DNA of 64,000 bases from Bacillota bacterium (GCA_040766745.1 JAXGPX010000001.1:187950-251949), one strand, 5' to 3'. Positions 11,882 through 21,149 are shown, counted from the stretch's first letter. Numbers and translations: made by a program. The notes: a model not told the origin generated them from the letters alone.

Positions 11882-13060
11882 ATGTTATACGATTTCGACA
11901 GAATATACAACAGAAAATCAACTTTGAGTGCAAAATGGTCTGTTGAAGAGGTTTTTGGCCACGATGATATCATACCGCTTTGGGTTGCAGACATGGATTT
12001 TCCTGTTGCCGAACCGATTGTGAGGGCACTGAAGGAGCGCGCTGATCACCCTATATTTGGTTATACCAGGGTTAGCCCCGGCCTGTATGAATCAATCATA
12101 AACCGGCTGGACGCAAAGTTCGGGTGGAAAATAGAGAAAGAGTGGATAGTCATAACGCCCGGTGTTATGCCTGCAGTAAATACATCAGTTGTTGCATTTA
12201 CGTCACCGGGTGACCTGGTGGCCCTGCAAAGCCCTGTTTATCCGCCTTTCTGGTCTTCGATTTCAGGCAATGGCCGTGAAGTCGCAGCTAACCGGTTGAA
12301 ACTTACCGGCGGCCGCCACGAGATTGATTTCAAAGATCTTGAGAGCAAGTTTCGCGGCCATAAAGCTCGAGCAATGATCTTGTGCAGTCCTCACAACCCT
12401 GGAGGGAGAGTGTGGAGTAAAGAGGAATTGGTGAGGATGGGAGAGATAGTGATTAGTTCGGGCGGTGTTATGATTGCAGATGAGATACACTGTGAACTTG
12501 TCATGAAGGGTTACTCTCATACCCCATTTGCTGCTATTAGCAAGGAGTTTGCCATGAACTCGGTCACGTGCTTTGCCCCCAGCAAAACATTTAACGTCCC
12601 AGGGTTCCATACATCTGTTGCCATTATTCCTAACGAGGAATTGAGGCAAAAGTTTGACAAGGCAAGGGGGAGGATCATGGGATCGCCCTGCCTTTTTGGG
12701 CTTGTTGCCATGGAGGCGGCATTTAAGTACGGAGACGAATGGCTGAGCCAGGCCATTGACTATATTGAGGGCAACATAGATTATGCAACGGAGTTTTTCG
12801 AAAATAGTGTGCCCGAGATAGTTCCTATGCGGCCAGAAGGCACATACCTAATTTGGCTGGATTGCAGGGGATTAGGATTGAAGCCTGAAGAACTGAAGCC
12901 TTTCTTTGTAGAAGAGGCAAGGGTAGGCTTAAATGACGGTATTACATTCGGTGCCGGGGGAGAAGGGTTTATGCGGCTCAACGTTGGATGTCCAAGGGCA
13001 ATTTTGCAGGAAGGCTTGAACAGAATAGAGAAAGCGGTAAAGGCACGCCGCAAGGTTTAG
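11882..13060 (+). CDS. PLP-dependent C-S lyase of the MalY/PatB family (class I/II aminotransferase fold; cystathionine beta-lyase-like)
   Basis: Characteristic N-terminus (YDFDRIYNRKSTLSAKW...DIIPLWVADMDFPVAEPI) and PLP-lysine region (SPSKTFNVPG). Confidence 0.8.
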   Translation: MLYDFDRIYNRKSTLSAKWSVEEVFGHDDIIPLWVADMDFPVAEPIVRALKERADHPIFGYTRVSPGLYESIINRLDAKFGWKIEKEWIVITPGVMPAVNTSVVAFTSPGDLVALQSPVYPPFWSSISGNGREVAANRLKLTGGRHEIDFKDLESKFRGHKARAMILCSPHNPGGRVWSKEELVRMGEIVISSGGVMIADEIHCELVMKGYSHTPFAAISKEFAMNSVTCFAPSKTFNVPGFHTSVAIIPNEELRQKFDKARGRIMGSPCLFGLVAMEAAFKYGDEWLSQAIDYIEGNIDYATEFFENSVPEIVPMRPEGTYLIWLDCRGLGLKPEELKPFFVEEARVGLNDGITFGAGGEGFMRLNVGCPRAILQEGLNRIEKAVKARRKV

Positions 13061-13073
13061 AAGCATCTTGCCT

Positions 13074-15038
13074 TTATGCGTTTTTCGTGGCTGCCATGGA
13101 TTTGGTGCCTGTATTGCTTGATCTTGGATTTAGCAGACTGCATTCTCTGTGGAGTTCTCGAAGATCCCAGCGATTCCTTGAGTATATAGAGTATGCCCGG
13201 TTTCTCAGCTGCTCTACACCTACCCTATCGCCGGTTTCTTCTAAGAGGTTGGATAGCCATAGAGATGCGCACGCAATTTCCCTACTGGATTCGTCTTGCT
13301 GGAACAATTCTATAGATCTTGCTGCCAGATTCTTTGCTTGCCTGTAGGCACCTCTAGATCGTTCCATACAGGCTCTTAGCAAGAGTACCCAGCCAAGTTC
13401 AGTACGCGCGCTGCTTTCTAACATAGCCGGGATTCGTTCAAGGAGCGCAGATGCTTCCTCTATACGGCCTTCACGCAATAGGGCCTTTGCGACCTCAACC
13501 CCTGCATATGCCCAATGGCTTTGCAGATTATCTTGTAAGTACAGTTTCTGGGCTTTGTAGAGGTATTCAAGGGATTCACCGGTACGATCCTCACGATACA
13601 GAATCATCCCGAGGTTATGGTAAGCTACGGCGAAGTCCACTTGATATCTTTCTGGAGCTTTCTTGATTGACGAAAGATAGTAGCCCTTTGCCATCTTCCA
13701 GTTTCTGCGCTTGAACTCAATCAGGCCTGACATTAGGTCTGCATGTGAAGCAAGTCTATTGGCTTCCGGAGGTTTTTGGGACCGTATCCATCCTCGAGCT
13801 TGGTTTAGGGCGCTTTCGGCCTGCTCGATCTTGCTCTGGGCAAAACTAGCAGTCGCCAGGTTCATTAGGAGGTGGCCATAGTTTGGAGAGGATGGTTCTG
13901 CCGATTCCAATCCTTTCTTATACCATGAGGCGGCTCTGGAATAGTCTTTACCAGAGTACATGTTTCCCATGGCCAGGCACACATAAACAAGCATGTCTTC
14001 GAGTTGGGCGTCTTGAAAAACCTGAAATGCACAGCCCCCCATTAGATCGGCTCCGTCAAAATCCCCGTTGTGTCCAAGGCACGCTGCATACTTGCATAAG
14101 CACTTGCCTCTTTCTCGCTGATCATTCAAGACCCCAAAGGCTATAGATGCCTCATGCCAGGCCCTGGCGGCCATATCCCATAATTGGCTCTTTTCGTATT
14201 CGTTTGCCGCTTTCTGAAAGTTATGGACTGCTTTTTGGGTTAATCCTGCTTTGACCATCACCCGGGCTAAATCCAGAAAGAACCGTGGCTCATCATCGGG
14301 AAAGGCCTCCATGGCTGCTGACAGGTCCAGGTACATCAGTCTCAATTTATCCTGCGTATATTGGGATGGCAGCACATCTTTCAGGTTTCTTCTGAGAAGC
14401 ACTCGGTTTCCTGCGATATCTTCAATAACTGACACAAGATCAAGGGCTGCAAGTTCTTCGATGCTATCTGCAAACAGGTCCTTCTCCATCTGGACTATAG
14501 ATTCTATCCATTCCATTCTGGCGTTGCTGCCCGCCAAGGAACAGGCCAGCAAGAGCCTTCTTTGATCTGCATTCAGTCTGAGGAGAACGAACTCACGGTC
14601 TTTGCTTCTTTCTGAATCACTTTGCTCGAAGTATCCAAGTATCCTTGAAAAGTATTTCTTCACAGAATGGGCCTCGTGGTCTGAGAGGGCAGCAAGTGCC
14701 AGGTAAAAGGGAACTTGCCTGGACTCAAGATTGGCCCTTTCAAGGAAAGCATCAATGAGGCCTTTGGTTTCTGTCCTGAGATGGCCTTCTGAAACCGGCT
14801 CAAAACCGGCGTTGTCATAAGAAGATGGGTTTTCCGTGTATAGGTAAGACATAGGCAACCCGAAAAAGGCTGCAATCCGGTCTTTGTATTCATCTCCGAG
14901 GTTTCTTTTTGTACCATTTAGTACCAGAGATAAGTACGACTCAGACAGGCCGATTATCTCTGCAAGATCCTTAAGCCTGAGATTCCTATGAGTTAGCAAC
15001 GCCCTAATGTTTTGGGCGAAGATCTCAAAAGAAGACAA
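13074..15038 (-). CDS. Large (654 aa) transcriptional regulator with an N-terminal XRE-type HTH and a long TPR-like alpha-helical repeat domain, resembling RNPP (Rap/NprR/PlcR/PrgX) architecture
   Basis: N-terminus NIRALLTHRNLRLKDLAEIIGLSESYLSLVLNGTKRN is an XRE HTH. The remainder is alpha-helical repeat sequence (e.g. AVAYHNLGMILYREDRTGESLEYLYKAQKLY). Probable TTG start at 15038 with AAGGGTG 7 nt upstream. Confidence 0.75.
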   Translation of the reverse strand: MSSFEIFAQNIRALLTHRNLRLKDLAEIIGLSESYLSLVLNGTKRNLGDEYKDRIAAFFGLPMSYLYTENPSSYDNAGFEPVSEGHLRTETKGLIDAFLERANLESRQVPFYLALAALSDHEAHSVKKYFSRILGYFEQSDSERSKDREFVLLRLNADQRRLLLACSLAGSNARMEWIESIVQMEKDLFADSIEELAALDLVSVIEDIAGNRVLLRRNLKDVLPSQYTQDKLRLMYLDLSAAMEAFPDDEPRFFLDLARVMVKAGLTQKAVHNFQKAANEYEKSQLWDMAARAWHEASIAFGVLNDQRERGKCLCKYAACLGHNGDFDGADLMGGCAFQVFQDAQLEDMLVYVCLAMGNMYSGKDYSRAASWYKKGLESAEPSSPNYGHLLMNLATASFAQSKIEQAESALNQARGWIRSQKPPEANRLASHADLMSGLIEFKRRNWKMAKGYYLSSIKKAPERYQVDFAVAYHNLGMILYREDRTGESLEYLYKAQKLYLQDNLQSHWAYAGVEVAKALLREGRIEEASALLERIPAMLESSARTELGWVLLLRACMERSRGAYRQAKNLAARSIELFQQDESSREIACASLWLSNLLEETGDRVGVEQLRNRAYSIYSRNRWDLRELHRECSLLNPRSSNTGTKSMAATKNA

Positions 15039-15322
15039 GACTAATCACCCTTTGAAATGAGATATATTTATTCCCATAGGCCATATCGTAAAACAGGGAA
15101 AATCTCTGATTGTTGAGACTATTGATTCGATTATAGGACGAGTTCACTTATTGAACCAGCTTCTTGGGAGAAGTTCTTGGTTATGGGTAATTGTGTCGTA
15201 ACTTATCTGGAAAGTATGAGGGGTGAATGCCCTGGGGCCCCTCATATTCCAGGGGGATAGAGACGGCCGGGAGCTTGAATCAAGATGCCCCCGGCTTTCT
15301 GGTGACTGACGCTGTTGACTTC

Positions 15323-15604
15323 CTATGCTGGCATGCCGTCTGCCGGCGCCCCATTAGCATTGGGCGGGTCGTCTTCCACAGGGGGAAGCGGCAGGGGCAA
15401 GCCAGGCCCGTCAGCCAGCAGCCCATCTTGTGGCGTCCCGTTAGCGTTGGGTGGGTCGTCTTCCACAGGAGGAAGGGGCAGGGGCAAACCAGGCCCGCCA
15501 GTTTGGTACAGCACTTTGGCTCTGTCATCCAGAGTTACTGTCATTCCCGACCCAAGGCTGATTACGAGAGCCAGGCAAATAAGAAGGTAACGGAATTTTT
15601 TCAC
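15323..15604 (-). CDS. Small secreted protein (93 aa from the second GTG) with an N-terminal signal peptide and two tandem 29-aa proline-rich repeats (GPGLPLPLPPVEDDPPNANG[T/A]P[Q/A]DG)
   Basis: MKKFRYLLICLALVISLGSG is a classic signal peptide. The second GTG (15604) has GGAGG 8 nt upstream. Two 87-bp DNA repeats give exact 29-codon protein repeats. Co-oriented with, and 285 bp upstream of, the HTH-TPR regulator. Confidence 0.6.
   Translation of the reverse strand: MKKFRYLLICLALVISLGSGMTVTLDDRAKVLYQTGGPGLPLPLPPVEDDPPNANGTPQDGLLADGPGLPLPLPPVEDDPPNANGAPADGMPA
15347..15520. repeat. Two tandem 87-bp direct repeats (about 85% identical) inside the small secreted-protein gene
   Basis: cgccccattagcattgggcgggtcgtcttccacaggggg... 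and cgtcccgttagcgttgggtgggtcgtcttccacaggagg... with an 87-nt period. Confidence 0.8.
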
Positions 15605-15630
15605 GCGAAGCACCTCCGTTTTGCAGTCTC

Positions 15631-16027: not shown

Positions 16028-16513
16028 TTAAAGATGACCCATGATTTCGTCAAATACCAGCCGTTCTAGGATTGACACCGAGTTGCTAATAGCAGGCGAT
16101 AGGCCAATTCCAGGATGGCAATGGAAAGGCTCAATACCGTAGATGATTACCTCGGTGGGCTTGCCTTTTTTCAGCCTGGCCAGTTCAATTGCATCCAAAA
16201 TCGAAAAGCCATGGGAGTCTCGTGCCGTATCAGTGCAATCTGAGAACCCACTCTTCAAGTGGCCGGACGGAATTACTTTGTGTATCGTTCCAGGCTGCGT
16301 TTTAGCTCTGATGGCATCAATGATGATTAGAGTGTCTACTTGCTCGAGTTCAGTGGCGTGATTGAGTACCGAGCACCCCATATTCAGGAGAGTTACATTC
16401 TCAGGCCATGTACGTAATTTCAGTTTGGCAATTACGTGTTCACTTAGGCCGTCGTCGCCCATTAATGGATTTCCGATACCTGCAACGAGGATTTTCTTAT
16501 GCTCCTTGGTCAT
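16028..16513 (-). CDS. [NiFe]-hydrogenase maturation endopeptidase (HyaD/HybD/HycI family)
   Basis: MTKEHKKILVAGIGNPLMGDDGLSEHV...LIIIDA...GIEP matches the protease family. The internal ATG at 16513 has GAGGTG 6 nt upstream. Divergent from the hydrogenase structural genes. Confidence 0.8.
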   Translation of the reverse strand: MTKEHKKILVAGIGNPLMGDDGLSEHVIAKLKLRTWPENVTLLNMGCSVLNHATELEQVDTLIIIDAIRAKTQPGTIHKVIPSGHLKSGFSDCTDTARDSHGFSILDAIELARLKKGKPTEVIIYGIEPFHCHPGIGLSPAISNSVSILERLVFDEIMGHL

Positions 16514-16699
16514 TGCCCACACCTCTCGCTTCAATCCCGTCCGGTTCATCTTATGTCACCGGTTCATATAATGCTTATAAGGTCTATGTGATGAATCAAG
16601 GAACATCTCCTTGGTTCACTGTATTCTGGTTATCCGCCCTGCTTTCTTGAGGCCGGGCACCGTGCACATTATTTCACAGCGAGAAAAGGAGCTAGAGCG

Positions 16700-17647
16700 T
16701 TGAACCAGATTGAGTTTGAGCGGCTTTGCACAGAGTTAAAACACAGCCCTGAGAACAAATTGTCGAAGGAGATTTTTCGAGTATTGAAGCCGGCCGCGAG
16801 ATTCCCCTCGGGCTCTGGTTTCTGCACGAGAAAACTCCCTGCAATTTGGATTGAAACTAATGACAGCGGTGATAACAATATTTCTTTCATGAATACTACC
16901 TATCCGTATCTGGATCAGGTTTTCCAGAACATAATCGATCTTTTGTACAGCAATACTTTTATGGCAGCCCAGGGCCAGGACGCTTTAGAGATTCTACGAA
17001 GTTCAGCCTTGCGGTACGCCGGAGAATTTGTCCTCATAGTAGAGGGCGCCATACCTGTACGGGACAACGGGCTATACAGCATCATAGCGTACGCCGGATA
17101 TGAACCTCTCACTGCTTTGAAAGTCGTATCGTGGCTGGGGCCTCTTGCAAAATACGTGGTAACCATAGGTACTTGTGCAAGTTACGGCGGCCCCTCTGCT
17201 GCCCGGCCTAATGTGGCGGGAAATGTTCCTGTTAGCCAGGTTATGAACAGGGAGGTCGTAAAAGTCAGCGGCTGTCCTGTAAATCCTGATTGGTTTGTTG
17301 GAACCCTGGCTCACCTGCTGTTGTTTGGGGTACCCCGGCTAGATGAGGTTGGGCGGCCTGCAATGTTTTATGAGTTCACCGTCCACCGTCATTGTCAGCG
17401 CCGTTCATACTTTGATAGAGACGATTTCGCCGAGAAACTAGGGGACATAGAGTGCATGTTTTCCCAGGGTTGTGTAGGGCCGAAGACAGGGTCCGATTGC
17501 CCTTATCGCCTTTGGGTAAATCATGTAAGCTGGCCTGTAAAAGTAAACACCCCTTGCATAGGCTGCACCAACCCGGATTTTCCTGACGGATCGGCGCCGT
17601 TTTTTACACCAATGCCCCAAAAGAGCCAAAGGAGGAATATGGTATGA
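16700..17647 (+). CDS. [NiFe]-hydrogenase small subunit (no Tat signal). The first two proximal-cluster Cys are replaced (DSGD instead of CxGC).
   Basis: Conserved GTCASYGG, GCPVNPD and C-terminal medial/distal cluster motifs (HRHCQRR..., GCVGP..DCPY, PCIGCTNPDFPDG). TTG start with AAAAGGAG 7 nt upstream. No RRxFxK motif. Confidence 0.75.
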   Translation: MNQIEFERLCTELKHSPENKLSKEIFRVLKPAARFPSGSGFCTRKLPAIWIETNDSGDNNISFMNTTYPYLDQVFQNIIDLLYSNTFMAAQGQDALEILRSSALRYAGEFVLIVEGAIPVRDNGLYSIIAYAGYEPLTALKVVSWLGPLAKYVVTIGTCASYGGPSAARPNVAGNVPVSQVMNREVVKVSGCPVNPDWFVGTLAHLLLFGVPRLDEVGRPAMFYEFTVHRHCQRRSYFDRDDFAEKLGDIECMFSQGCVGPKTGSDCPYRLWVNHVSWPVKVNTPCIGCTNPDFPDGSAPFFTPMPQKSQRRNMV

Positions 17648-19128
17648 ACCGGAAATATGTGATGTTCAGTCCGGTTACACGATTGAGCGGGCTTCTCTCA
17701 GTTGAAACCATAATGGAGAACAATCAGGTTACCGAAGCAAACGTGAAAGGTACGTTGTTTAGAGGGTTTGAATGGATTATGAAGGGCAGGCATATAAGAG
17801 ATGCCGTGTACATGACCCAAAGAATTTGCGGGATTTGTTCTATGGCTCACGGAGCGTGTGCTTCTTACCTACTAGATGAATTGTATGATAATGAAATCAG
17901 TGAAAATGGCCAACTGCTCAGGAACATAATGTACGCATCAGATTTTCTGCAGAACCATATACGCCACTATTACCTTTTCAGCATGCCTGATTTCGTGAGG
18001 ATGCCGGAGCGTGCTCCGTTTGAAGGCCAGGATGTAAGTGATTTACGACTGAACCCTCGAGACAATGATACACTCGTAGATCATTACTTCGAAGCCATCA
18101 AGGCAGCTCAGGAAAGCCACCAGATTCTTACTTTGTTTGGAGGAAAAGCTCCTCACCAGCATAGCTTCGTTGAAGGCGGAGTTGCCGTGATTCCTACTGC
18201 AGACAAAATAGGCCAGGCTTTGGCCTTGATAAACAATATCAGGGCATTCGTCAGAGACCGAATGGTTCCTGATACTGAACTTATCGCACGGGTTTACAGG
18301 GATTACTTTTCTATAGGTGTGACCCCGGCCCGGCTTTTGAGCTTTGGGCTTTTCCGGTTTGGCCCCAAGAATGAGGTGTTTGTGTGGCGTGGGGGAGTGC
18401 TTAACGATGGCTGGCTTAGTTCAGTGGACATAAGCAAAATTCATGAGACAGTAACAAGGTCATGGTTTAGAGAAGAGGGATACCAATTTGAAGAAGATGA
18501 TGGCGGTTCATATTGTGAGGGTAAGCCGGAGACCCCAGTGGCCGGGTTGGACATTGGCCTGACTCAGCTAATCCCAGACCCGAATAAGCCAGGTGGGTAT
18601 TCATGGGTAAAGTCGGTGCAGTATTCAGGAGAGCCGTTTGAGGTAGGGCCACTTGCGAGAATGACGATAAATGGCTTCTACAGAGGCGGCATGTCTACCA
18701 TGGACCGAATCTATGCCCGAACTGTTGAGACTCTGCTAATTGCAGACTTGGTTAAAGAATGGCTTTGCCGCCTTAGAACCGGCCCGGCTCCAATTAGCCA
18801 GAAGGAAGAGCCTGAAAAGAATAAGGCTACTGCACTGACCGATGCAATGCGAGGATCTCTCCTTCACAGCGTTGACATGGAAGACGAAAAGGTAATATCG
18901 TACAACATTATTACTCCTACTACTTGGAACTTTTCACCCAAAGACGATAGGGGCCAGATGGGCCCTGTAGAGAATGCCCTGGTAGGCACAAGGGTAAGCA
19001 GCCGGCAGAACATCTTGACAGTGCTTGGAAGAATAATCAGGTCCTTTGACCCATGCTTGTCGTGTGGAACACATGTGCTGAGCCGTGAAGATGGTCTGCT
19101 CTCATCGATTGGGCAAGTGATTTTGTAG
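17644..19128 (+). CDS. [NiFe]-hydrogenase large subunit (catalytic), with a C-terminal extension after His for proteolytic maturation
   Basis: N-terminal RICGICSMAH and C-terminal DPCLSCGTHV Ni-binding motifs. The start overlaps the small-subunit stop (ATGA). The L1 RxEGH motif is divergent (TRLSGLL). Confidence 0.85.
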   Translation: MNRKYVMFSPVTRLSGLLSVETIMENNQVTEANVKGTLFRGFEWIMKGRHIRDAVYMTQRICGICSMAHGACASYLLDELYDNEISENGQLLRNIMYASDFLQNHIRHYYLFSMPDFVRMPERAPFEGQDVSDLRLNPRDNDTLVDHYFEAIKAAQESHQILTLFGGKAPHQHSFVEGGVAVIPTADKIGQALALINNIRAFVRDRMVPDTELIARVYRDYFSIGVTPARLLSFGLFRFGPKNEVFVWRGGVLNDGWLSSVDISKIHETVTRSWFREEGYQFEEDDGGSYCEGKPETPVAGLDIGLTQLIPDPNKPGGYSWVKSVQYSGEPFEVGPLARMTINGFYRGGMSTMDRIYARTVETLLIADLVKEWLCRLRTGPAPISQKEEPEKNKATALTDAMRGSLLHSVDMEDEKVISYNIITPTTWNFSPKDDRGQMGPVENALVGTRVSSRQNILTVLGRIIRSFDPCLSCGTHVLSREDGLLSSIGQVIL

Positions 19129-19310
19129 GTAAAATGGCCCTCTATTCAACTCTTACCGTAGATTTTCTTTTTAGGCAAGTGCGTCTTGGAGATATCTTAG
19201 CGTAGAGCCCAAGCAGGTTTGAAGTTTGCCTTCGTCTTCTGATTCGTATAGTATGGCTCTGTACGTCGATGCAGATAATTTACTACCAAATGCAGAAAGG
19301 AGGACGGACA

Positions 19311-19652
19311 ATGAAAAAAGCAATATCGGTAGTTCTGTTACTAGGAGTAGTGTTGGTTTTCTCGGGATGCAGTTCTTCCAAATGGGAAAACGGTACTTTC
19401 TACGGAACCGGAACAGGCCATGGCGGCCCAATCAAAGTAGAAGTAGTCATAGAAAAAGGCAAGATTGCTAAGGTTGAAGCGGTTGAGCACAGCGAGACTC
19501 CCGGTTTGGGAGACGCAGCCCTTACCAAGATCTCTGCTGACGTGATTAAAGATCAGAAGGCTGAGGTAGACTCGGTAACCGGCGCAACCGTAACCAGCGA
19601 AGGTTTCAAGGCAGCTATTGCTGATGCCCTCTCACAGGCAGAGAAGAAGTAA
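19311..19652 (+). CDS. FMN-binding-domain lipoprotein (extracellular), with an ApbE flavinylation motif
   Basis: Signal peptide plus lipobox (LVFSGC). FMN_bind-type motif DSVTGATVTS. ATG 19311 is preceded by AAAGGAGG. Confidence 0.75.
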   Translation: MKKAISVVLLLGVVLVFSGCSSSKWENGTFYGTGTGHGGPIKVEVVIEKGKIAKVEAVEHSETPGLGDAALTKISADVIKDQKAEVDSVTGATVTSEGFKAAIADALSQAEKK

Positions 19653-19709
19653 AAGCACAATACGATGAGGCACTTATTGCTGGAGCGTACATAGGGGGAG
19701 GACTACTAA

Positions 19710-21149
19710 ATGAAGAAATTGGCTCAGGCCTTGGCGGTGGCTCTTATATGTATATTGTCTGTGGGATGTGCAGGCGGAGCAAAGTACAAGGCTGACGTAG
19801 TGGTAATAGGGGCGGGCGGTGCGGGGCTGGCCGCGGCCAATACAGCAGCGGACAATGGAGTAAAGGTAATCTTGATTGAGAAAATGCCCTTTGCAGGCGG
19901 AGCGACTACTCTGGCTGCCGGCTCTATTACAGGTACCGGAACCAAGCTTCAGACTGAAAACGGTGTAGAAGCTTCAGCAGAGGAATTTCAGGCTGAACTA
20001 GAGAGTGAAGCAGTATATGAATATGACAGGGAACTTGTATCTGCCCATGCTGGATACTCTGGCAAGGCCATTGACTTCATGGCTGATCTGGGAGTTGAGT
20101 TCTTCCCTGAACTTGAACAAGCTCCGTTTAGGCATAGAACAAAAGATCCGTACCAGGCGAAATTCGTTCAGCTTGCGCTGGACTCCTTAAAGAGCAAAGG
20201 CGGAGAGGCCCTTCTGAATACTAAGGCTACTGAGATATTGAAGGACAAAGACGGGTCGGTTTCAGGTGTCAAGGCCATATCTGATGGCAAGGAAATCACA
20301 ATAGCGGCAAAAGCCGTTATTATCGCTACAGGCGACTTTGGAGCAAATAAGGAAATGCTACCTGTCGAGTACAGAAATGCCCTCAATTTCGGCCCTGTCT
20401 CCAGCACCGGAGATGGTATCAAGATGGCCGAGAGCTTAGGAGCTGCCACTGTTAACATGGATAAGGTGGCACTCTGGGGCAATGGTATTGAGGCAGCCGA
20501 GGGGCTCGGTGAGTACAGCTGGGGCCGGCTTCTTTGTGAGTTTGGCGGAATTTACGTTAACACCGATGGGGTAAGGTTCTCTAAAGACGTTTTAGATGAT
20601 GAAGAGGTAGCCCAGGCAACATTTGAGCAAGAGCAGGCAGGCAAGTATGTTTGGGTGGTTTTTGACCAGAAAATCAAAGACGCTCTGCATGGGTTAGGTT
20701 TTCCTAGTGTTGTGGCAACCTGGGATGCAGCAAAAGAGGCTACAGAACTAGAGAAGAACCATAACGTAGCAAAAGCCGATTCGATAACAGATCTTGCAGC
20801 AAAGATTGGAGTACCTGCAGAAGCTCTTGAAGATACACTGAGCAAGTACAATTCCTATGTTGAAACTCAAAGCGATCCTGAGTTTGGGCGGCCTTTGTTC
20901 GCTAATCCCATTGCAGAAGGGCCGTACTATGCAATGATCCAGCGGGTGGGGATCTACCCGACAGTCGGCGGCTTGAAGATTGATGCAGAAGCTCGAGTGT
21001 TGAATACTTCAGGCGAGCCGATTCCAGGACTATATGCTGCAGGCGATGTCACTGGCGGAGTTAGCACTAACGGCCGTGACACTCTGGTTCCTGGCATGTC
21101 ATTTGGGATAATCGCAGGTGAAAACGCGGCTGAGCAGGCGAAGCAGTAA
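19710..21149 (+). CDS. FAD-dependent oxidoreductase of the fumarate-reductase/urocanate-reductase flavoprotein (FAD_binding_2) family, made as a lipoprotein (extracellular)
   Basis: Lipobox LSVGC. FAD dinucleotide motif DVVVIGAGGAGLAAA. C-terminal active-site-like region (GLYAAGDVTGG). Confidence 0.75.
   Translation: MKKLAQALAVALICILSVGCAGGAKYKADVVVIGAGGAGLAAANTAADNGVKVILIEKMPFAGGATTLAAGSITGTGTKLQTENGVEASAEEFQAELESEAVYEYDRELVSAHAGYSGKAIDFMADLGVEFFPELEQAPFRHRTKDPYQAKFVQLALDSLKSKGGEALLNTKATEILKDKDGSVSGVKAISDGKEITIAAKAVIIATGDFGANKEMLPVEYRNALNFGPVSSTGDGIKMAESLGAATVNMDKVALWGNGIEAAEGLGEYSWGRLLCEFGGIYVNTDGVRFSKDVLDDEEVAQATFEQEQAGKYVWVVFDQKIKDALHGLGFPSVVATWDAAKEATELEKNHNVAKADSITDLAAKIGVPAEALEDTLSKYNSYVETQSDPEFGRPLFANPIAEGPYYAMIQRVGIYPTVGGLKIDAEARVLNTSGEPIPGLYAAGDVTGGVSTNGRDTLVPGMSFGIIAGENAAEQAKQ

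Follow-up and report, generated by a model that had tools for sequence, protein, structure and literature searches.

A Bacillota family of predicted cytoplasmic [NiFe] hydrogenases with altered proximal-cluster and proton-gate motifs

We analyzed a stretch of 64,000 nucleotides (nt) from a Bacillota bacterium (GCA_040766745.1 JAXGPX010000001.1:187950-251949; hereafter the window, with positions counted from its first letter), which encodes a [NiFe] hydrogenase and an adjacent maturation protease at 16,028 to 19,128. The hydrogenase is composed of a small subunit (SSU) of 315 amino acids (aa) serving electron transfer (16700-17647, + strand; Oxidored_q6 PF01058, 1.8e-21; NiFe_hyd_SSU_C PF14720, 2e-29) and a catalytic large subunit (LSU) of 494 aa (17644-19128, + strand; NiFeSe_Hases PF00374, 5.4e-93); the LSU start and the SSU stop share 4 nt. 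The enzyme certainly belongs to the [NiFe] hydrogenases and has its ancestry in group 1a, yet it lacks two features that usually define the mechanism of these enzymes: the SSU's two N-terminal Cys ligands to the proximal cluster and the proton-gate Glu in the LSU. A first-pass annotation, made from the sequence alone, had described the enzyme as unusual. Both features are indeed replaced, but the replacements are not peculiar to one genome and instead are the hallmark of a large Bacillota family. We favor the view that these proteins are active cytoplasmic [NiFe] hydrogenases with a proximal centre held by two Cys residues and by oxygen or nitrogen donors, and would give this reading as a whole a probability of about 0.5.

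The proximal-cluster loop and the proton gate

The loop W50-IETNDSGDNN-I61 of the SSU (16847-16882, +) occupies the canonical position of the proximal-cluster CxxC motif. When the SSU was compared with PDB sequences by phmmer, D. gigas 1frv_A YLHNAECTGCSESLL and Dm. baculatum 1cc1_S WVQGQGCTGCSVSLLN aligned gap-free to WIETNDSGDNNISFMN. MAFFT gave the same register as HMMER, in which YLHNAE-C17-T-G-C20-SESLL is paired with WIETND-S56-G-D-N59-NISFM. Both N-terminal proximal-cluster Cys residues are gone, Cys17 being replaced by Ser56 and Cys20 by Asn59, and the E-C-T-G-C loop of other enzymes becomes D55-S56-G57-D58-N59. Asp55 and Asp58 are each located one residue N-terminal of Ser56 and Asn59. 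The original description of a change from Cys to Asp/Ser was approximately correct. As that description also had it, the downstream Cys residues are kept: of the canonical four-Cys set (CxxC ... GxC ... GCP), Cys159 in GTCASYGG (17168-17191, +) and Cys192 in SGCPVNP (17267-17287, +) remain as the third and fourth ligands, each conserved in 171/171 sequences.

Conservation was counted on 171 distinct full-length SSUs with an overall identity of ~60-65%. Residues E52, S56, D58 and I61 were present in all of them, T53 and N59 in 170, N60 in 169, and W50 and G57 in at least 99%, so that the substitutions, as had been asked of the orthologues, are invariant or nearly so. Across the whole SSU, 82 of the 315 positions were at least 99% conserved. 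A database search with the SSU returned 556 matches at E <1e-20; the best 120 of these 556 were 61-98% identical, and all of the 120 contained W[ILV]ET[NSC]DSGDNNI or a one-residue variant. Asp55 was found in 168/171 sequences and was replaced by Cys in two lineages, with loops ETNCSGDNN in locus L031 and ETNCSCDNN in L065 and P0258, two diverged sequences from Halanaerobiales. Judged by this pattern, exchange between Asp55 and Cys looks like behavior typical of metal-ligand positions.

A mis-registered alignment that conceals nearby Cys residues, or decay of the genes into pseudogenes, could in principle produce the same picture; we regard both as very improbable. The register is ungapped in HMMER and MAFFT, and no conserved substitute Cys is found nearby. 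In the N-terminal 150 residues the only other Cys residues are Cys10, present in 148/171 relatives (87%) and located in a separate helix, and the window-specific Cys42; they were considered as substitute ligands and rejected, given the incomplete conservation of the former and the restriction of the latter to the window's lineage. Relative to the closest relative (91% identical SSU), the ratio of nonsynonymous to synonymous substitution rates (dN/dS) was 0.14 for the SSU and 0.15 for the LSU, which indicates purifying selection on the pair. Frameshifts or in-frame TAG stops do disrupt the LSU in 8 of 72 loci, and this is what decay would predict; however, more than 60 loci are intact, arguing that the gene family is not decaying. 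TAG stops were seen in L065 (Halanaerobacter jeridensis, ~11885) and L030 (~12001), and frameshifts in L007, L012, L024 (Syntrophaceticus schinkii, ~7022), L033 and L040; they may stem from assembly errors, pseudogene formation or recoding. Selenocysteine was considered as a cause of the split LSUs and dismissed, as the breaks are frameshifts or TAG codons at varied positions.

In the LSU, PVTRLSGLL (aa 10-18; 17671-17697, +) replaces PVTRIEGHL of 5jsu_B. The proton-gate Glu of the RxEGH element is therefore absent, with Ser15 in its place, and the following His has become Leu17, exactly as first noticed. Among 120 family LSUs, RLSGLL occurred in 95 and Ser substituted for Glu in ~114; Glu was kept in 3, and 2 N-terminally truncated sequences gave no match. 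The Ni-Fe site itself conforms to expectation. All four Ni-Fe cysteines are present, and both Ni-binding pairs named in the first-pass annotation were found: Cys62 and Cys65 in the L1 motif RICGICSMAH (aa 60-69; 17821-17850, +), and Cys471 and Cys474 in the L2 motif DPCLSCGTH (aa 469-477), which is followed by a 17-aa C-terminal tail, the protease substrate (19048-19125, +). The catalytic Arg is kept in DAMRGSLLH (18841-18867, +), where Met has replaced the Pro that precedes it; this change is specific to the family with the DSGDNN loop, whereas sister clade L069-L076 has APRG and L078 has VLRG.

Other positions around the active site have also changed. Gas-gate residues were assigned by alignment and by a constant 47-residue offset from Cys65. 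Ile64, within L1, occupies the first position (RxCG-I-C; Ile in 120/120 LSUs), and Phe112, in HIRHYYLFS (17956-17982, +; canonical HxxHFYHL, third His lost), occupies the second (HxxHxYx-F; Phe in 111/115). In GGKAPHQHS (18139-18165, +), alignment places a first His, which we take to be the equivalent of Hyd-1 His229, beside the proximal cluster, together with a clade-specific second His, His173. In the 120 LSUs the first position of P[H/N]QH was His in 106, Asn in 13 and Glu in 1, and the second His was invariant (120/120), where canonical enzymes have Gln or Asn. We also observed an acidic insertion of ~25 aa, YQFEEDDGGSYCEGKPETPVAGLDIGLTQ, at aa ~293-325 of the window LSU (18520-18620), which is shared by its nearest relatives; most family LSUs are without it and are 464-470 aa long, compared with 494 aa in the window.

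Structural work on a canonical enzyme suggests how the two anomalies are related. In neutron and X-ray structures of the D. vulgaris Miyazaki (DvMF) hydrogenase, Glu34(L) takes the proton from Cys546(L) and is separated by 2.52 A from the Thr18(S) hydroxyl, and Thr18(S) is itself hydrogen-bonded to Glu16(S) (PMC10498676). Cys546, the catalytic base of DvMF, is matched by Cys471 in the window LSU. Glu16, Thr18 and both cluster Cys residues belong to one E-C-T-G-C loop. Because the gate Glu contacts Thr18 and Glu16 of the very loop that is altered in the SSU, the comparison with DvMF indicates that the two anomalies are not independent and that both faces of a single subunit interface have been rebuilt. 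The idea of a mechanistically divergent enzyme is supported: the predicted proteins differ from other enzymes where the proximal cluster is bound and also at the proton gate. Loss of the gate need not abolish catalysis: the E14Q variant of T. roseopersicina Hyn had ~50% of its activity left, and an Arg-Asp-His route was proposed (PMC3325256), implying that the gate Glu is not always indispensable.

Several observations suggest that the proximal site still binds a redox centre, which we consider likely. Glu115 in LIVEGA (17033-17050, +; 171/171) is, counting along the MAFFT alignment, the equivalent of HybO Asp81, a carboxylate beside the proximal cluster; in E. coli Hyd-2, Asp81(S) can ligate displaced proximal Fe (PMC5902676). 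The invariance of Cys159, Cys192, Glu115 and the loop, together with the exchanges between Asp55 and Cys, points to retention of the centre. The remaining relay is complete: the distal ligands His229, Cys232, Cys252 and Cys258 and the medial ligands Cys267, Cys286 and Cys289 (17384-17566, +) are all conserved in 171/171 sequences, and the distal-cluster segment HRHCQRRSYFD is invariant and strongly basic. Pro279 occupies the fourth medial position, so that WPV...PCIGC corresponds to the 3Fe type of D. gigas and not to the WCV type of NiFeSe enzymes. In group 1 structures the distance between the Ni-Fe site and the medial cluster is more than tunnelling can bridge, and the medial and distal clusters would be purposeless without a proximal relay. 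A loop binding flavin mononucleotide (FMN) as in flavodoxin, or Ca, was considered for this flavodoxin-like fold; no signature match was found, and the invariant Cys159 and Cys192 speak for a metal or Fe-S centre instead.

In the mechanism we propose, the proximal redox centre would be held by Cys159, Cys192 and oxygen or nitrogen donors, most likely Asp55 and Asp58 and possibly Ser56, Asn59, Glu115 or LSU His173. Protons would leave the Ni-bound Cys via SSU carboxylates that replace the lost Glu. Electrons would flow by way of the medial and distal clusters to a soluble, acidic acceptor of the ferredoxin or flavodoxin type, which would dock on the basic HRHCQRRSYFD patch, and the narrowed Ile/Phe gas gate would limit access of O2 and CO. 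The enzyme would most likely carry out H2 uptake or recycling at modest turnover. The individual ligand assignments are more tentative than retention of the centre. Cys2-Asp2 ligation through a DxxD pair shifted by one residue from the canonical positions is a candidate to which we give somewhat less than even odds, and the same caution applies to a combination of Asp ligation with a proton relay through the loop. We give similar odds to the idea that the family has a new kind of proximal centre, a metal or Fe-S site in which two Cys and carboxylate, amide or hydroxyl ligands (or the LSU His) double as the proton exit; it would amount to a combined relay for protons and electrons that arose stepwise.

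A number of points weigh against this reading. In strict register the Cys replacements are Ser56 and Asn59 and not the Asp residues. To our knowledge, this fold offers no precedent for a natural Fe-S cluster that has as few as two Cys ligands. The AlphaFold2 (AF2) model of the SSU, built on a 28-sequence alignment, had a mean predicted local distance difference test (pLDDT) score of 64, with values <50 at the loop, beyond Cys159 and throughout the C-terminal cluster domain. No electron-acceptor gene was conserved near the hydrogenase in the 72 loci, the LSU is disrupted in some loci, as described above, and our literature search returned no biochemistry or structure for any family member. Chemostat cultures of C. 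acetobutylicum did not express the sister enzyme (PMC4669385). The proximal site might also be empty or hold another metal. A hydrogenase without a redox centre at this site would be crippled or turned to another use, for example one that only binds H2 or performs H/D exchange, or one whose LSU hands electrons directly to a partner. The survival of only two of the four Cys residues agrees with such a protein, as do the in-register Ser and Asn, which are poor Fe-S ligands, and the richness of the loop in Asp, Asn, Ser and Gly, which resembles a cation-binding or structural turn. However, a site without function would hardly keep Cys159, Cys192 and Glu115 in 171/171 sequences, conserve the loop more strongly than the rest of the SSU, exchange Asp55 with Cys and retain medial and distal clusters that are pointless without a proximal relay; we consider absence of the centre improbable.

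Evolutionary history and relation to known hydrogenases

Scanning one genome per GTDB species, we detected relatives in 157 species, sister clades included. Hosts of the family include Halothermothrix orenii, Halanaerobacter, Orenia, Sporomusa ovata/malonica/silvacetica, Pelosinus, Heliobacterium, Desulfotomaculum/Desulfoscipio, Pelotomaculum, Syntrophaceticus and Thermacetogenium. On present sequences, the family with the DSGDNN loop is restricted to Bacillota and branches from HydDB group 1a, and group 1a references were its closest sequence neighbors (top PDB matches).

Intermediate loops were found in related lineages. The genome scan and a search of 50%-identity representatives revealed WVECNA-C-S-G-D-K in L069-L076, and WLETNG-C-S-G-N-S and C-G-G-N/D in Syntrophomonadaceae (L078-L085). 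C. acetobutylicum pSOL1 CA_P0141/0142 encodes an SSU with WLEVTG-C-S-G-N-I and without a Tat (twin-arginine translocation) signal, and an LSU with PITRISGFL; Ser in place of the gate Glu is already present in sister-clade LSUs (RxSGxL). In a neighbor-joining tree, sequences with intermediate loops and the family formed one clade, inside which the DSGDNN family was monophyletic and nested. The nested tree and the sister-clade states suggest a stepwise series from CTGC via CSG[DN] to DSGDN. The first step would therefore have been loss of the LSU Glu together with replacement of SSU Cys20 by Asp or Asn. In the second step, confined to the DSGDNN family, Cys17 would have changed to Ser, Thr/Ser18 to Gly, Gly19 to Asp and Glu/Gly16 to Asp, along with Pro to Met before the catalytic Arg.

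Single non-Cys proximal ligands are known from other hydrogenases, including an Asp in group 3a FrhG and in group 1h, and Huc (group 2a) has three [3Fe-4S] clusters. These enzymes provide a precedent for Asp, Asn or Glu at position 20 and keep three Cys residues; in contrast, the DSGDNN family has two and is also without the proton-gate Glu. Further CxxC variants were observed in other SSU lineages among the 50%-identity representatives (P0242-P0244, P0259, P0264, P0323, P0357 and P0390), including Tat-bearing C-[TA]-G-[DN] and S-D-[TS]-G-C, in which Asp replaces the first Cys, and many representatives in this library had C-x-G-[DNEH]. Judging from these motifs, non-Cys ligation at the CxxC site seems to be commoner than one would expect from the textbook motif.

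Compared with group 1a [NiFe]/[NiFeSe] enzymes (5jsu, 1cc1), the family shares the two-subunit core, L1 and L2, the catalytic Arg, C-terminal processing and the His-ligated distal cluster. It differs in the loss of proximal Cys17 and Cys20 and of the proton-gate Glu and next His, in an Ile/Phe instead of a Val/Leu gas gate, in the lack of a cytochrome partner gene, and in having a helical N-terminal extension instead of a Tat signal. With respect to NiFeSe enzymes, the medial site is of the 3Fe type (theirs is 4Fe) and the active site contains Cys and not Sec. Tat-less clostridial HupSL (CA_P0141/0142; C. autoethanogenum CAETHG_0861-0862) belongs to the same wider tree clade; its SSU is 48% identical, and it likewise has Ile at the first gas-gate position. 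However, in HupSL only Cys20 is replaced (CSGN) and Cys17 is kept, giving three Cys residues against two in the family; the second gas-gate position is Leu and not Phe, and the protease is encoded downstream, followed by a cytochrome b5-like gene.

The sister enzymes have received some attention. WP_010890826.1 serves as a group 1a best match in a previous study, which noted that HydDB files the C. acetobutylicum type as a group 1a respiratory periplasmic uptake enzyme and that no Tat signal was found; proximal ligands and the gate Glu are not mentioned there (PMC9431212). More generally, our literature search found no report of proximal-Cys loss or gate-Glu loss in these enzymes, but an earlier mention is possible in key papers beyond its reach.

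Within the family, the history of the window locus itself appears complex. Synonymous divergence from the closest relative, L004, was 0.36 for both SSU and LSU and ~3.3 (saturated) for the flanks, represented by the protease (16028-16549) and an aminotransferase (11882-13060). Compared with its flanks, the SSU-LSU cassette appears far more recent. Recombination or horizontal replacement could explain this, as could an unusual constraint on synonymous sites.

Location, maturation and physiological role

That the proteins form a real, matured, cytoplasmic hydrogenase is, on sequence evidence, hardly in doubt. The SSU starts with TTG, preceded by an AAGGAG ribosome-binding site, and its open reading frame (ORF) opens at the first start codon past a stop, which makes upstream extension impossible. 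No RRxFxK twin-arginine motif was found in the SSU, in line with the first-pass annotation, and the Tat signal was absent in all relatives inspected. With neither a Tat signal nor room for one upstream, the enzyme is almost certainly cytoplasmic, and fold, motifs and purifying selection agree with its initial identification as a cytoplasmic [NiFe] hydrogenase. Instead of the signal peptide, the SSU has a family-specific N-terminal extension of ~45 aa (16700-16834, +; family alignment and AF2), in which AF2 predicted two helices (3-13 and 21-29) with a mean pLDDT of 77-90 per 10-residue block over residues 1-30. The best PDB matches were group 1a/1b small subunits for the SSU (E=1e-54 to 2e-53) and [NiFeSe]/group 1a enzymes of Desulfovibrio and Desulfomicrobium for the LSU (E=2e-96, 38% identity). 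Database entries identical to the two subunits are MGI6162599.1 (SSU) and MGI6162600.1 (LSU), both labelled 'MAG: Bacillota bacterium'.

A maturation endopeptidase of the HycI/HybD type (16028-16549, - strand; Pfam HycI PF01750, 2.6e-14; TIGR00072, 2.7e-31) is encoded divergently from the SSU-LSU pair. This arrangement had been taken to argue for a matured enzyme, and the 17-aa tail supports that argument. The protease was divergent in most loci, and tailed LSUs usually had a divergent protease at -1. In 12 loci of Negativicutes (Sporomusa, Pelosinus and others; L025, L028, L029, L032, L035, L039, L044-L047, L050 and L068), the LSU ended at the His of DPCxxCxxH and no protease was adjacent; by sequence, these loci represent a protease-independent sub-branch of the family. 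Co-variation of tail and protease across loci implies that the normal Ni-Fe insertion pathway is in use. The hyp genes (hypA-B-(F)-C-D-E(-F)) were located directly 3' of the hydrogenase in H. orenii and D. defluvii; none was found within the 64-kb window. In addition, we noticed a conserved element, TTCATA[TC]AATGCTTA, at 16563-16578, ~120 nt 5' of the SSU start and beside the protease start, which recurs at equivalent positions in L004 and L006 and could be an extended -10 promoter whose transcript has a long 5' leader.

Neighboring genes were clustered over the 72 loci. Apart from the protease, recurrent neighbors were hyp genes, ABC/ECF-type ATPases, Mrp/NUBPL-type ATPases and scattered others, and no cytochrome, membrane anchor, diaphorase, Hdr or kinase gene was conserved across the set. 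Directly 3' of the window LSU (19269-21149, +) lie genes for an FMN_bind-domain lipoprotein and an FAD_binding_2 flavoprotein; the latter starts with a signal sequence like that of lipoproteins and is similar to fumarate or urocanate reductases. Both proteins are probably extracytoplasmic and, for this reason, unlikely partners of a cytoplasmic hydrogenase.

The first-pass annotation had also raised a sensory role, in which slow H2 splitting would send a conformational or redox signal to a partner encoded elsewhere. Group 2b sensors (R. eutropha HoxBC and R. capsulatus HupUV) resemble the family in being cytoplasmic and Tat-less and in their bulky Ile/Phe gas gate. They have an adjacent histidine kinase, an SSU C-terminal extension and an LSU without a tail. 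None of these three properties is a family trait: the window LSU has its tail, and SSU C-termini across the family are short and variable, with no docking extension. The Negativicutes members do lack the LSU tail, as does the R. eutropha H2 sensor, and a sensor would also accommodate the low turnover predicted by loss of the proton-gate Glu and the lack of a redox partner gene nearby. Ile and Phe at both gas-gate positions are found in the R. eutropha and R. capsulatus sensors, where the pair restricts O2 access (PMC6695573); in the family this gate is one sensor-like trait set against complete medial and distal clusters and an invariant basic docking patch. No signalling partner (kinase, GGDEF or other) was conserved. 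Histidine kinase or response regulator genes occurred at variable distance near ~9/72 loci, no more than expected, and none adjoins the hydrogenase in the window. Furthermore, a complete hyp operon often adjoins the hydrogenase, and the family groups with group 1a and not with group 2b. We therefore regard the sensory option as unlikely.

A regulator gene located upstream of the hydrogenase in the window might seem to favor a sensor. It encodes a 654-aa HTH_3 + TPR protein and is immediately preceded, on its own strand, by a 96-aa ORF, which has a signal-peptide-like N-terminus and two copies of DGPGLPLPLPPVEDDPPNANG (both genes within 13074-15613, -). From their sequences, the two look like an RNPP-type (PlcR/NprR-like) regulator and its pro-peptide. 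However, regulator and ORF make up an insertion of ~2.6 kb that separates the aminotransferase from the protease and is missing from the three closest loci, L004/L005 (91% identical SSU; two records of one arrangement) and L006 (83%), and the regulator was dismissed as a hydrogenase partner on this ground.

Returning to an enzyme that processes H2, the physiological direction is slightly more likely to be uptake or recycling than otherwise. The 3Fe-type medial cluster, the Ile/Phe gate and hints from expression and knock-down studies favor cytoplasmic H2 uptake. In H. modesticaldum, transcripts of hupS and hupL (HM1_1478/1479) were 34-fold and 49-fold more abundant in the light than in the dark, and nifDK changed in step with them (PMC2887804); membership of this hupSL in the family is inferred from three other heliobacteria. 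Knock-down of sister-clade hupCBA in C. saccharoperbutylacetonicum lowered butanol formation, an effect attributed to lower H2 uptake (cited in PMC3044671). With the same architecture, the enzyme could instead use reduced ferredoxin or flavodoxin to evolve H2 and act as a redox valve in the cytoplasm. A cytoplasmic location in ferredoxin-rich hosts would suit this role, the basic distal-cluster patch would suit an acidic low-potential donor, and CA_P0141-0142 was up-regulated in C. acetobutylicum biofilms evolving more H2 (PMC8209462). However, hosts already have several [FeFe] hydrogenases for the task (e.g. PMC4148979), the medial cluster and narrowed gas gate are typical of uptake enzymes, and both the heliobacterial co-expression with nitrogenase and the uptake phenotype attributed to the hupCBA knock-down point the other way, making H2 evolution an unlikely main function.

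Members of the family have been encountered before without their ligands being discussed. The S. ovata member, WP_021170382.1, was listed and not studied (PMC9253864), and the membrane activity of S. ovata is due to a different, Tat-dependent HupSLC (PMC9430772). 'Simple dimeric' [NiFe] enzymes were reported in Desulfotomaculum (PMC4148979).

Some neighbors recurred in distant lineages. DUF421/YetF membrane-protein genes adjoined the hydrogenase in L001, L011, L013, L033, L053 and L086, and ferritin-like Mn-catalase/CotJC-like genes in L009, L010, L019, L020, L041, L068 and L001, which hints at a link to spores or oxidative stress. A regular-expression scan upstream of 70 SSU genes showed no enrichment of sigma-F/G, E or K promoter motifs relative to shuffled sequences; the link to sporulation is kept as an observation only.

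The four-Cys proximal cluster and the gate Glu are treated as near-universal in the mechanism of [NiFe] hydrogenases, and engineering studies tune O2 tolerance and catalytic bias through these two elements; both are replaced here. Current database labels for these genes ('periplasmic [NiFeSe]' or 'quinone-reactive' hydrogenase, and group 1a respiratory) are almost certainly wrong on location and partner, and such mislabelling distorts metabolic models of acetogens, syntrophs and sulfate reducers. Tractable hosts include Sporomusa ovata, Heliobacterium, Halothermothrix orenii (ACL69144/ACL69145) and Desulfotomaculum. Provided that the enzyme is active, the family would represent a natural experiment on the rebuilding of proton and electron relays and may provide a new type of Fe-S ligation.

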